DNA of 43,124 bases from a virus. Its lineage: Duplodnaviria; Heunggongvirae; Uroviricota; Caudoviricetes. Shown here piece after piece: positions 18,001 to 21,000 of this stretch. The position numbers are program-made. Every line of letters begins with the position of its first letter. Position 1 is the stretch's first letter. The stretch spans positions 1-43,124 of IMG/VR virus record IMGVR_UViG_2531839664_000026; one strand, 5' to 3'.

Positions 18001-21000
18001 CAATCAGTACATTACTGCTGTGACTCCAACACGGCAGTTTTTTTATTGAACAGATTCCAGTTTCTTCCACCATCGCACCGGATGGGCGACCATGAGGGGA
18101 GAACGCCGCGCTCCGTTTACGCGGTAAACCCCGGTGTGTATCGTTTTTGATTATCCCCGCACACTCTCGCAGAGGAGTCTCCCTGTCGGGCTGCGGTCTC
18201 TGTTAATGCAGGAATACGGCGACAATACCGCGCATGGATAATAAGGTCGCTCAACACACTGGCTGTAATTCAGCGGATACCATTCGGCATTTATCAGTAT
18301 TCATCACGCACTCAACGGTGAATTCTTCATGCGTGGCATTCACTTCATATGTTCGTGAATAACATTCAGTGCATTTACCTCTGAACACCTCTTCAAGCAG
18401 AACACGGCCATGTTGCAAAACACGGAACGGAATTGTTCCCTGAAAAGGTTTTACCGTTACCTGTAATTTCTTCATACATCCTCCGGATAATAAAAAGCCT
18501 GCTTAGTACACTGAGTGCGGATATAGTCCTGTGCCCCTTCCACCTGCTTCTGCATTGTCATCAATCGTTCTCTGAGGATGAAATAATCCCGTTCAGCGGT
18601 GTCTGCCAGTCGGGGGCCGGTTGCATTATCCACGCCGGAGGTGCCGGTGGCTTCACGCACGGTACCGGGGCAGGTGGCGTTGATCCGCAGGCGCTTACGA
18701 CCAGCGGCAACATCAGCGCGCAGAGTTTCATTTTCAGCTCTCGCATCGGCTAATTCCCTCGAGTATCTGGCATCAAGTGCAGCAACATCACGCTGGCGCT
18801 GCTGCATATCAGTAATGGTTGCATTTGCCAGCTCCAGCTCACTGACTTTTTTATCGCGCTGCTCTTTGTAGGTTATGGCGTTATCACGGTAATGATTCAG
18901 CCCCAGACTAAGCGCACCACAGGCCACCAGCAGGGCAATGATGACCACGCACAGTACGCGGTTCATTTCACCACCAGCGTATCTGACCAATGAAATAACC
19001 GGAAGCCATAATCACAAACACCAGCCAGATAAGGATGAACTTCCAGGTGGATAATTTTTCAGCCATCATTCGAATCTCCCGAATCAGTTTGCTAAAATCA
19101 AACACACTTTCTCCTTTGACTTTTCCGGAGTCAGGAAACACAAAACCCCGCTTGCGGCCAACAAACGGGGTTTTACTTTTATTCACTTAGTTTTTGCCAG
19201 TTCGCAGGATTTCGTGTTATCCGCCCGTGTGAGCAAACCGCATTTTTCAGCAAAATATTCTGCTTATCTGTCAATTCCCCAGCACGCCAGCGCGCTCTCC
19301 TGGTCACGCCGTGAGACCTGACCGTAGCAGTTGTTTGAGCGAATACGGCAGTCTCTGCCACCGTCCTTAATCCACCAGCGAATCGCCTCGCATGCTCCCC
19401 TGCGGTCACCAGCATTAATCCGTCTGTAAAACGTCGACGGGAAACACTTACCGGGGCCAATGTTGTACGGACAGAATGACGCAATACCCGCTTTCTGGGG
19501 TTCGGTCAGCGGCACTCTGATATTGCGCTCCACCCACTCCAGCGCCTTATCACGTTCAATGGCGTTAACCTGGTCGCACTTTTCCTTCGACAACTTCATA
19601 CCCGGGACGACAGGTTTACCATCCACCAGGATGGCACCGCGGCAGATGGTCCAGATACCCGCACCATCACGGTATGCCGTGGTGTGGTTACCTTCTTTTT
19701 CGTCAAGAAACTGGTCGAGGATTTCAGGCGCAGACGCCCCTGCACCAATCAGCGCCAGAACGGCAGCCGACAGGCCGTATCTGATTTTTGCGTTCATGGA
19801 TATTTATCAGGGTTTATCGATTTCAAATCCCTGGATATGTTAAGTCTTCAGGCCAGCGGTGGAGTCTTCAGAGAACCAGTAATTATTCCCGGTAGTTTTC
19901 CTCTGTAGGTTATCAACACATCCTGCGCCTCTAAAATGATGGGCCGCTTTTCCGGCAACGGACCATCCCCTTCACATAACCCGGCAGCAACATCCATGAA
20001 AAACTGCTTCGCCTGCTTTTTCGCCTCAGCTTCGTAAAACTCCAGCGTGGCACCTTCAGTACGGTCAAGACTAATCGCCACATCTGGCAACAACAGTGAC
20101 GGATACCCACCAATTTCCAGTGCCACAGTAACAGTAATCTTATCCGGGTAATTATTTATCCCTTTAACACCCAGTTCGTATTTTTTCTTCATCGCTTTAC
20201 TCTCCCCGCGCCGCCTTACGCTTATCTTCTTTAATCTTGAAATAAAGGTTTGTCAGATACGTCAGCAGGCCAAACAGCAGACTCCCCAGCACACCTATCG
20301 CCACCCACTGGGACGGAGAGACTTTGTCCAGCAGCTGCAGTAACCAGTATCCCGTCCCACGCTGACGTGGTGTATGACACACCTGTTGTGTATTTTTTCC
20401 ATCTGATGTATGTCTCCGTCACCGCCGACAGGAAATGAAAGTAAAGAAAAACAAAAAAGCCGCCAGTGTCACCCACTGACGGCCAACGCCGGGAGCCGTG
20501 ATTATGGCATTCAGGCTCTGCTAAAAATGCCAGATAACATTCCGGCCTCCCCTGATTCAGGTTATAAATGACACAATATCTTGACAACATCCGTCACTGT
20601 CTGTCAGAAAATGTACTGCCATATAGAAGCAACATGTGAAGTACATCTATCCTTTTGAGCCAGCACCTCTCCACCGAAAGTCAGTGCTGGCTGTTTTTTT
20701 CCTTAATAAGGCATCTGTAACTGAAACAATCCGCATATTGATAATATATTGACAGGCATCATTGCTGTCTGTGAAAAATAAGTCTCTACAAACTGAGGTG
20801 TACTGGCAATAGCGGACACTACCATTTGTTCTTTTTTTAAGCAGCCATCTGATGATATTTTTCCCTGAAGGCTGCCGGGGAGATATTCCCCAGACGAGAG
20901 TGACGACGCTGACGATTGTAGAAAATCTCAATGTATTCCCGTATTACTGAGATGGCTTCATCCCGGTTATTAAAACGATAGTGGCTCAGGCTCTCATTTT

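Follow-up and report, generated by a model that had tools for sequence, protein, structure and literature searches.

The window examined in this work comprises positions 1 to 43,124 (43,124 nucleotides, nt) of the IMG/VR virus record IMGVR_UViG_2531839664_000026, assigned to the Caudoviricetes, and the element of interest is located in its lysis region, in the gap between the endolysin gene R and the spanin gene Rz. This gap was found to contain a hairpin (HP1), a leader, and a 45-codon gene for a single-pass membrane peptide (MFDFSKLIREIRMMAEKLSTWKFILIWLVFVIMASGYFIGQIRWW). The hairpin and the open reading frame (ORF) very probably constitute one functional, mobile unit, which spans approximately 210 bp in the window. 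The preferred reading, to which a probability of about one half is assigned, is that of a mobile hairpin-leader-peptide cassette in which expression would depend on read-through and would be controlled by an antisense RNA, in a layout like that of type I toxin-antitoxin systems. The minus-strand order of the region is class II holin, 114-amino-acid (aa) ORF, lysozyme R, hairpin, small hydrophobic ORF, and Rz with embedded Rz1. An earlier reading of this DNA, made without database searches (hereafter the sequence-only reading), had singled out the 114-aa ORF, the hairpin, and the small ORF as additions to the canonical S-R-Rz/Rz1 set, and none of the three belongs to that core. The coordinates of all features are collected in Table 1.

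The small ORF was matched to phrog_6632 over positions 1-45 of the 45-position profile, which places it in that family. The gene begins with GTG at 19105, five bases after the Shine-Dalgarno (SD) sequence AAGGAG (19116..19111), and ends with TGA at 18970..18968, one base short of the Rz ATG at 18966. The sequence-only reading had described a hydrophobic ORF of 33 codons with a GGGAG SD that overlaps the start of Rz. A hydrophobic ORF is indeed present, but the 33-aa version covers only phrog_6632 positions 13-45, the C-terminal part of the GTG gene at 19105..18968, and the two genes are adjacent without overlap. Frames of 44-45 codons that start throughout with GTG or TTG were found in approximately 30 variants of the protein, which come from many viral contigs and nine enterobacterial genera; distant homologues use ATG. 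Codons 14-45 display a pattern of purifying selection, in which Arg43 is encoded by CGT, CGC, CGA, CGG, or AGG, Val29 by three codons, and Phe23 by two, and synonymous changes (CTG/CTA/TTA, ATT/ATA, and CGG/AGG) were also observed in codons 7-9. Distant members (47-54 aa) retain the protein motif [S/I]-K-x-[I/L]-x-E-x-R-x-M-x-x-[K/R]-L-x-x-W-[R/K]-F at the N-terminus, and therefore the first 13 residues are translated. The family is represented by only 40 clusters among 1.84 billion cluster representatives, all of them 32-86 aa in length and without longer fusions; on these grounds, the possibility that the small ORF is the truncated N-terminus of another Rz was rejected. As read from the sequence, the N-terminus of the peptide is charged and amphipathic; a single hydrophobic helix (W21-I39) comes after it, and the last six residues form a tail that ends in RWW. 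No match to the small ORF was obtained in Pfam or NCBIfam. RefSeq mostly lacks this gene or carries a 72-aa frame that runs through the hairpin; this GTG-extended version is found in RefSeq and GenBank as WP_001043239.1 and BCI49733.1 (locus L001, 4013..4231, and locus L005, 1605..1823), and the lengths assigned to this one locus by gene callers in the protein collection are 32, 45, 65, or 72 aa.

Read as minus-strand RNA, which is the strand of the late mRNA, HP1 forms a stem of 15 bp, G.U pairs included, that is capped by a loop of 5 nt and followed by UUUUGUGUUU. What is left on the plus strand is a G+C stem of 9 bp with UUUUACUUUUAUU after it, and because of this the term 'bidirectional', used in the sequence-only reading for a terminator-like hairpin between R and Rz, is a fair one for the stem at 19175..19141. 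The shape of an intrinsic terminator, a G+C-rich stem-loop directly before a U-run, is present on both strands, and the 76-nt context of HP1 folds with -24.7 kcal/mol (z -2.96). A simple consensus terminator scan of the window did not include HP1 among its calls; its action as an intrinsic terminator is predicted from shape and conservation. A strong hairpin with differing stem sequences was present at the same place in all 56 genuine variants taken from upstream of the small ORF (a 57th row, the K-12 locus L099, was a chance pattern match and was left out). When 21 distinct versions were aligned, 93.8% of the cells paired, changes on both sides were seen in 9 of the 13 pairs, none of 500 shuffles matched this pairing, and no slid register came near it. 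HP1 was found in every cassette examined, distant ones included, and the U-run on the antisense side was seen in all cases. The leader from HP1 to the GTG start measures about 35-36 nt.

HP1 and the ORF occur together in Escherichia, Trabulsiella, Citrobacter, Edwardsiella, Yersinia, Sodalis, Brenneria, Pantoea, and Providencia. Of 5,426 complete E. coli genomes, 897 carry the full cassette, and it was also identified in 42 phage records, those of Stx1a-, Stx2a-, and Stx2c-converting phages among them; viable phages that carry it are the Stx-converting phages, SPN3UB, and SEN34. Approximately 170 loci have the cassette between a phage lysozyme gene (phrog_7) and Rz, and approximately 16 have it between the genes for the gpV baseplate spike and the gpW baseplate wedge of P2-like prophages and phage SEN34. 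It is flanked by a GH108 endolysin (phrog_315) and a DUF2514 Rz-like spanin in Edwardsiella (3 loci), by a phrog_873 endolysin and Rz in Citrobacter (3 loci), by a GH19 endolysin (phrog_181) and a phrog_1026 spanin (2-3 loci), and by a phrog_33497 gene of unknown function and Rz (2 loci). Single loci were found with a phrog_1259-like lysozyme domain and a contig end (Providencia), with a tail fibre gene and no recognised gene (Sodalis), with an Ant-like gene upstream, and with a portal gene and a contig end; at one further place, for which 23 contigs were read, non-phage genes (Ldh, HpcH aldolase) lie on both sides. Where lysis genes adjoin the cassette, the endolysins represent four to five families without mutual relationship and the spanins represent three. 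At three distant loci the layout was unchanged: A-run, G+C hairpin, T-run, 35-45 nt, and start codon.

The same observations bear on the explanation that nothing here is functional, in which case the hairpin would do no more than terminate the R message or stabilise its 3' end, and the small ORF would be a frame that arose by chance where recombination left a scar. In its favour, the R-Rz junction varies in content and marks a mosaic boundary. Against it, hairpin and ORF remain paired in genera and contexts that are not related, length and frame of the ORF are preserved through synonymous variation, and the hairpin covaries; the conservation data already contradict this explanation, and it is hardly credible.

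With its presence or absence between relatives and its position as an extra gene among conserved late genes, the small ORF resembles a moron. In a classical moron, the peptide would be produced at a low level in the lysogen, to the advantage of host or prophage, for instance through the exclusion of superinfecting phages at the inner membrane; the part of HP1 would be limited to insulation from neighbouring transcription, no antisense RNA would exist, and the nucleotides of codons 3-12 would serve translation (AT-rich start, internal SD). The mobility of the cassette over unrelated phage types and late-operon insertion sites agrees with this explanation, as does the terminator that belongs to the unit, and the small inner-membrane peptide has a counterpart in known exclusion proteins such as HK97 gp15, itself a small inner-membrane protein and an example of a moron. 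The coding strand between R and the ORF (19100..19270) yielded no sigma-70-like promoter in the promoter scan, and HP1 lies 36 nt from the start codon, both of which speak against a classical moron; a candidate sense promoter overlapping HP1 was rejected by eye since it has no -10. Morons of lambdoid and P2-like phages (Juhala et al. 2000, cited in PMC4104026) are likewise extra genes between essential late genes in otherwise unrelated phages and are bounded by a terminator, but those described have the promoter upstream and the terminator downstream. In the cassette, the terminator stands upstream of the ORF, and a promoter followed by a terminator is predicted on the opposite strand alone, that of the putative antisense RNA. 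Translation needs also leave unexplained the exclusive use of AGC for Ser5 and of CGA for Arg12 (described below), and a classical moron is considered distinctly unlikely.

Accessory genes of lysis cassettes include lambda S, with its dual start and upstream sdi stem-loop, P2 lysA, between K and lysB, and the Mu releasin gene gp25. The present cassette is like these in its location in or near the lysis genes, its small membrane protein, a start that may be dual, and a stem close to the first of the starts; it differs from them in having no homology and in occurring outside lysis cassettes as well. It is unlikely, though worth weighing, that the 45-aa peptide is a dedicated accessory lysis protein, namely a timer similar to an antiholin, holin, or releasin. 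The late transcript would then be its source, it would be coupled to Rz, and forms of both 45 and 32 aa could arise in the manner of lambda S105/S107, with HP1 and the leader stem setting the dose. This explanation would account for the recurrence of the cassette at the endolysin-spanin junction beside the unrelated endolysins phrog_7, phrog_873, phrog_315/GH108, phrog_181/GH19, and the phrog_1259-like lysozyme domain, and beside three unrelated Rz-like families. The small-ORF stop lies 1-3 nt from the spanin start, or overlaps it, in most cases, the peptide has a single transmembrane helix, and up to four small transmembrane ORFs occupy this site in other strains, all of which also agree with a role in lysis. 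So does the nucleotide-level conservation of the internal start in the closer variants, where GGAG at codons 9-10 is kept in 39 variants with R, M, or K as residue 9, and ATG14 is invariant across the same 39 DNA variants. These variants have two conserved in-frame starts (GTG1 and ATG14), each with its own SD, and a second product of 32/33 aa from the internal GGGAG and ATG13/14 is therefore possible. In distant homologues the internal GGAG is kept (L253) or degraded to GAG (L252, L256), and one of them, P0179, has no Met at position 14; the dual start is therefore not universal. Further evidence against an accessory lysis protein is the placement of the cassette between gpV and gpW in the P2-like prophages, after the portal gene, after the tail-fibre gene, and among non-phage genes. 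The Qin prophage of K-12, a strain without the cassette, has a working lysis cassette that lacks hairpin and small ORF, the holin gene in the window is a pseudogene, and no similarity of the small ORF to any holin or antiholin family was found among the PHROG, Pfam, and NCBIfam profiles. Conservation in related lysis cassettes was one of the checks named in the sequence-only reading; both ORFs and the hairpin were kept in homologous cassettes, and its proposal of extra lysis elements is partly supported, in that the extras are conserved yet not lysis-specific.

Other small ORFs were observed at the same junction. In the R-Rz gap of other prophages, two to four single-helix ORFs of 28-60 aa are packed closely together behind the same hairpin; in E. 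coli strain 2/0 (L097, 2595..3078) four small single-helix ORFs follow one another, and in Sakai Sp14 (L098, 2093..2419) the same hairpin, leader, and SD are followed by two other small ORFs, ECs_2740 and ECs_5740. The full cassette is absent from Sakai. The endolysin-spanin junction thus appears to serve generally as the landing site of small membrane-peptide gene arrays. A 28-aa ORF in an R-Rz array also ends in IRWW and lies just before Rz, and in SPN3UB (L003, 1386..1502), upstream of the cassette, a hydrophobic ORF of 38 aa (MTMSKRDVSALCFLMAAAVAISGNDGWGWLIFAGIIIL) that lacks annotation overlaps the lysozyme gene at its end.

Antisense control is suggested by the opposite strand of the first codons. 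Across codons 3-6 the plus strand reads TTTGCTAAAAT, an extended -10. Positions of TGnTAnnnT were compared in 14 diverse members, among them three distant, G+C-rich homologues, and were the same in 13; in the remaining member, L252, the motif is shifted by 3 nt, corresponding to one extra codon. As a background value, TGnTAnnnT occurred anywhere in the equivalent 50 nt of 2.0% of 3,836 other ORF starts. Codon usage is restricted as well: wherever residue 5 is serine it is encoded by AGC and never by TCN (all 39 RWW-type variants, L224, and two distant homologues rich in G+C, L252 and L256), and Arg12 is always encoded by the rare CGA in the 39 variants, L224, L227, and L234, as against the five codons used for Arg43. 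Replacements at residues 4-6 preserve the motif (TAAAAT, TAATAT, TAAGAT, and TGC to TGA), and two ORF types that are unrelated but follow the same leader also show a TAnnnT (TATACT or TAATAT) there. The predicted antisense RNA has a length of 67-76 nt in those members, 12 of the 14, in which the terminator was located. The existence of a cis-antisense RNA, as judged from these patterns, is plausible, if short of probable.

A promoter, an RNA body, and a terminator in this order on the plus strand are also the classical moron layout, and it could be that the main product of the locus is a small RNA (sRNA) of the opposite strand that acts in trans on host or phage mRNAs, the 45-codon frame being secondary or separately selected. 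Other prophage sRNAs, AgvB and STnc100, occur in the window and its relatives, and the leader, which would be the body of such an RNA, is common to cassettes with different ORFs. A trans-acting sRNA as the main product is nevertheless very unlikely, given the clear protein-level selection on the ORF, which extends over approximately 100 nt past the predicted RNA, the considerable variation of the leader among lineages, which is not expected of a trans-acting seed, and the lack of a match to any Rfam family. Rfam searches of the window and seven related loci gave nothing at the hairpin or leader beyond weak terminator-like matches to the rimP leader and ohsC (E 1-8). The prophage sRNAs described by Tree 2014 and in the Pas sRNA preprint lie upstream of the holin or 3' of stx, outside the R-Rz gap.

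Under the preferred reading of a read-through cassette with antisense control, the steps would be the following. Since there is no sense promoter and HP1 stands so close before the start codon, the peptide would be made only from transcripts that cross the hairpin. In a lambdoid prophage this read-through would be provided by the Q-antiterminated late transcript, according to the established behaviour of lambdoid late operons, and a Q-like gene is present upstream on the same strand. Translation would be held low by the observed GTG or TTG start codon and perhaps, to a weak degree, by a stem that pairs with the SD. A cis-antisense RNA of approximately 70 nt would probably also limit translation; it is predicted to start at the extended -10 inside codons 3-6, to run across the start codon and the SD, and to stop at HP1. 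HP1 would thereby double as the insulator of the peptide gene and the terminator of the antisense RNA. The most likely site of action of the peptide is the inner membrane, at a late stage of infection, and its designation as a membrane-active toxin or lysis timer is a tentative one. A wider proposal is possible, though on balance doubtful, namely that the cassettes form a new type I toxin-antitoxin-like family in phage late operons, in which a promoterless 45-aa toxin would be silenced in the lysogen by the upstream bidirectional terminator and by an approximately 70-nt cis-antisense RNA sharing that terminator. Only massive late (antiterminated) transcription, by overrunning both controls, would free this toxin, and it would function as a membrane-depolarising lysis timer or fail-safe or as an abortive-infection or addiction device.

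Several points weigh against read-through with antisense control. The antisense -35 is weak, with 2-4 of 6 matches, and the consensus promoter scan did not call the antisense promoter. The retrieval of loci L100-L219 relied on a DNA pattern in which bases of codons 5-6 and 10-12 were fixed, and part of the nucleotide invariance in these codons is therefore ascertainment bias. The coding strand is the one on which wobbles of the inner HP1 stem read as G.U; these pairs suit the coding-strand RNA, so that HP1, by the evidence of its pairing, is under selection at least in the late mRNA, whatever its role on the plus strand. HP2, a possible stem that would sequester the SD, gave SD-pairing probabilities of 0.8-0.96 in most variants as compared with 0.6-0.7 in shuffled controls, a difference that is not significant alone. 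A strong terminator within the V-W operons of P2-like prophages, for which antitermination is not known, is awkward for the read-through step. The holin of the window is broken, and therefore nothing in this copy can be linked to lysis. Finally, the literature contained no paper with the peptide sequence, WP_001043239, or ECs_2740/ECs_5740.

In comparison with type I toxin-antitoxin systems such as hok/sok and symE/symR, the cassette is alike in encoding a small hydrophobic peptide (45 aa, within the limit of <60 aa) with one transmembrane helix, in its predicted short antisense RNA over the ribosome site, in its mobility, and in a translation that is weak or occluded. It is unlike them in that the peptide mRNA has no promoter of its own, in its location inside phage late operons without a long intergenic region, and in the predicted antisense terminator, which is bidirectional and lies within the peptide leader. 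No sequence or Rfam similarity to known type I families was found in Pfam, NCBIfam, or Rfam. The possible formation of two in-frame products, 45 and 32 aa, has a parallel in sprG1/SprF1 of a staphylococcal prophage, for which 44- and 31-aa peptides from two in-frame starts are reported (PMC10579593). The peptide family is not listed by Fozo et al. 2010, and the cassette, because of its position inside operons, would fail the spacing filters applied there. If the antisense prediction is correct, a type I-like module would have been missed by earlier genome screens, which could not find it because long flanking intergenic regions were required, and terminator/antiterminator logic would be joined with small-toxin control in phage late expression. 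Rfam, Pfam, NCBIfam, and the literature held no known RNA family, function-assigned protein family, or paper that covers the cassette. It is carried by about one in six complete E. coli genomes, by Stx-converting phages, and by Salmonella phages, and it is almost never annotated correctly.

Table 1. Location of the cassette components and of the surrounding genes in the window.
Feature	Position	Strand	Basis or remarks
HP1, G+C-rich covarying hairpin between A-run and T-run	19141..19175	both	Predicted bidirectional intrinsic terminator by shape; folding and covariation
HP2, possible stem of the U-rich tract past HP1 with the SD of the 45-codon gene	19110..19138	-	Predicted in the window, SPN3UB, and SEN34
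45-codon GTG-initiated gene, single-pass membrane peptide, PHROG 6632	18968..19105	-	phrog_6632 E 8e-30
Internal start, possible second initiation (32/33-aa form)	19064..19080	-	GGGAG 19080..19076 and ATG ATG (codons 13-14; 19069, 19066)
Predicted antisense promoter	19070..19098	+	-35 TCGAAT 19070-19075, 17-bp spacer, TG 19090-19091, -10 TAAAAT 19093-19098; conserved TGnTAnnnT
Predicted cis-antisense RNA	19105..19183	+	Approximately 70-80 nt; complementary to start codon, SD, and leader; ends at HP1 and U-run
R-Rz gap, 297 nt	between 19264 and 18966	-	Holds hairpin and small ORF
Untranslated stretch, R stop to hairpin	19176..19263	-	Also conserved in SPN3UB, a Salmonella phage
Endolysin R, phage lysozyme, 177 aa	19264..19797	-	Pfam Phage_lysozyme E 3.5e-24; phrog_7 endolysin
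YdfR/DUF1327-family gene, 114 aa	19848..20192	-	Pfam DUF1327 (PF07041) and phrog_406
Phage-21-type class II holin, disrupted pseudogene	20197..20402	-	Pfam Phage_holin_2_1 E 1e-25 on GTG-frame remnant
Rz (i-spanin)	18472..18966	-	Pfam Phage_lysis E 1.3e-49; ATG one base past the stop of the 45-codon gene
Rz1 (o-spanin lipoprotein), inside Rz	18561..18746	-	Pfam Rz1 E 3e-21
74-aa ORF, start overlapping Rz stop	18251..18475	-	phrog_2571 E 1e-28; hypothetical protein in relatives
IS3-family element	20837..21993	-	HTH_Tnp_1 ORF 21993..21691 and 272-aa transposase 21655..20837
Q-like antiterminator gene	28921..28565	-	phrog_79 E 8e-49; upstream of the lysis genes, same strand

The 114-aa ORF between holin and endolysin, called unknown in the sequence-only reading, was found where it had been placed but proved to have a family. 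It scored 151.2 bits against PF07041 (cut-off 25; E 9e-45) over residues 1-112, which makes it a member, and matched phrog_406 with E 1e-63; RefSeq names the gene 'YdfR family protein' in hundreds of genomes. The order essQ-ydfR-rrrQ-rzpQ of the E. coli K-12 Qin prophage matches that of the window, as do many E. coli prophages, and a YdfR family member occupies the same place in Qin, between a class II holin and a lysozyme. In Qin, unlike the window, R and Rz are not separated by a gap, and the small ORF is missing. The N-terminal 72 residues of K-12 YdfR align with the window protein, whereas the C-terminal 40 residues differ. Through those 72 residues K-12 YdfR is reported to bind the catalytic (N-terminal) half of RNase E, and to co-purify RNA; when overproduced, it has little effect on the transcriptome (2026 paper, PMC13232886). 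By family assignment and gene order, the gene between S and R is an ordinary ydfR-family gene, unrelated to the cassette of hairpin and small ORF, and this part of the lysis region brings nothing new.

Alignment of the holin gene with three intact relatives located a +1 insertion and a -2 deletion in its 5' region, and RefSeq tags the same gene as 'frameshifted' in a close E. coli relative. Every gene 3' of the holin is intact in the window cassette. Because of the frameshifted holin, this copy of the lysis cassette is probably dead, i.e. not lysis-competent, or alternatively the indels are errors in the assembly. The hydrophobic N-terminus of endolysin R suggests an enzyme of the signal-anchor-release type. 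For the conservation with SPN3UB of the untranslated stretch after R, blastn gave 71% identity over query positions 30-336. The 74-aa ORF after Rz is a further conserved uncharacterised gene and closes the lysis cassette.

Upstream of the holin, the IS3-family element, designated 'IS600 family' in a close RefSeq relative, truncates a sialate O-acetylesterase gene (23594..22116, SASA+DUF6645). Two terminator-like hairpins lie immediately 5' of the holin (20458..20546, minus strand); the PasA/PasC sRNAs have been placed between sialate esterase and holin in such prophages by a 2026 preprint. Farther upstream, Rfam identified the anti-sRNA AgvB at 24116..24177 (plus strand, 96.5 bits) back to back with STnc100 at 24178..24367 (minus strand, 148 bits), an arrangement that is the convergent sRNA pair typical for lambdoid prophages of the enterohemorrhagic E. 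coli type, and also a C4 antisense RNA (34771..34858) beside isrK (34883..34959), both on the minus strand. Two tRNA genes (25144..25373, minus strand) are located between a DNA methylase gene (26472..25414) and a TerB-family gene (25043..24540). Two plus-strand ORFs at 27091..28552, of 308 aa (phrog_2802) and 182 aa (no family), lie between the Q-like gene and the remaining late region, to which they are oppositely oriented.

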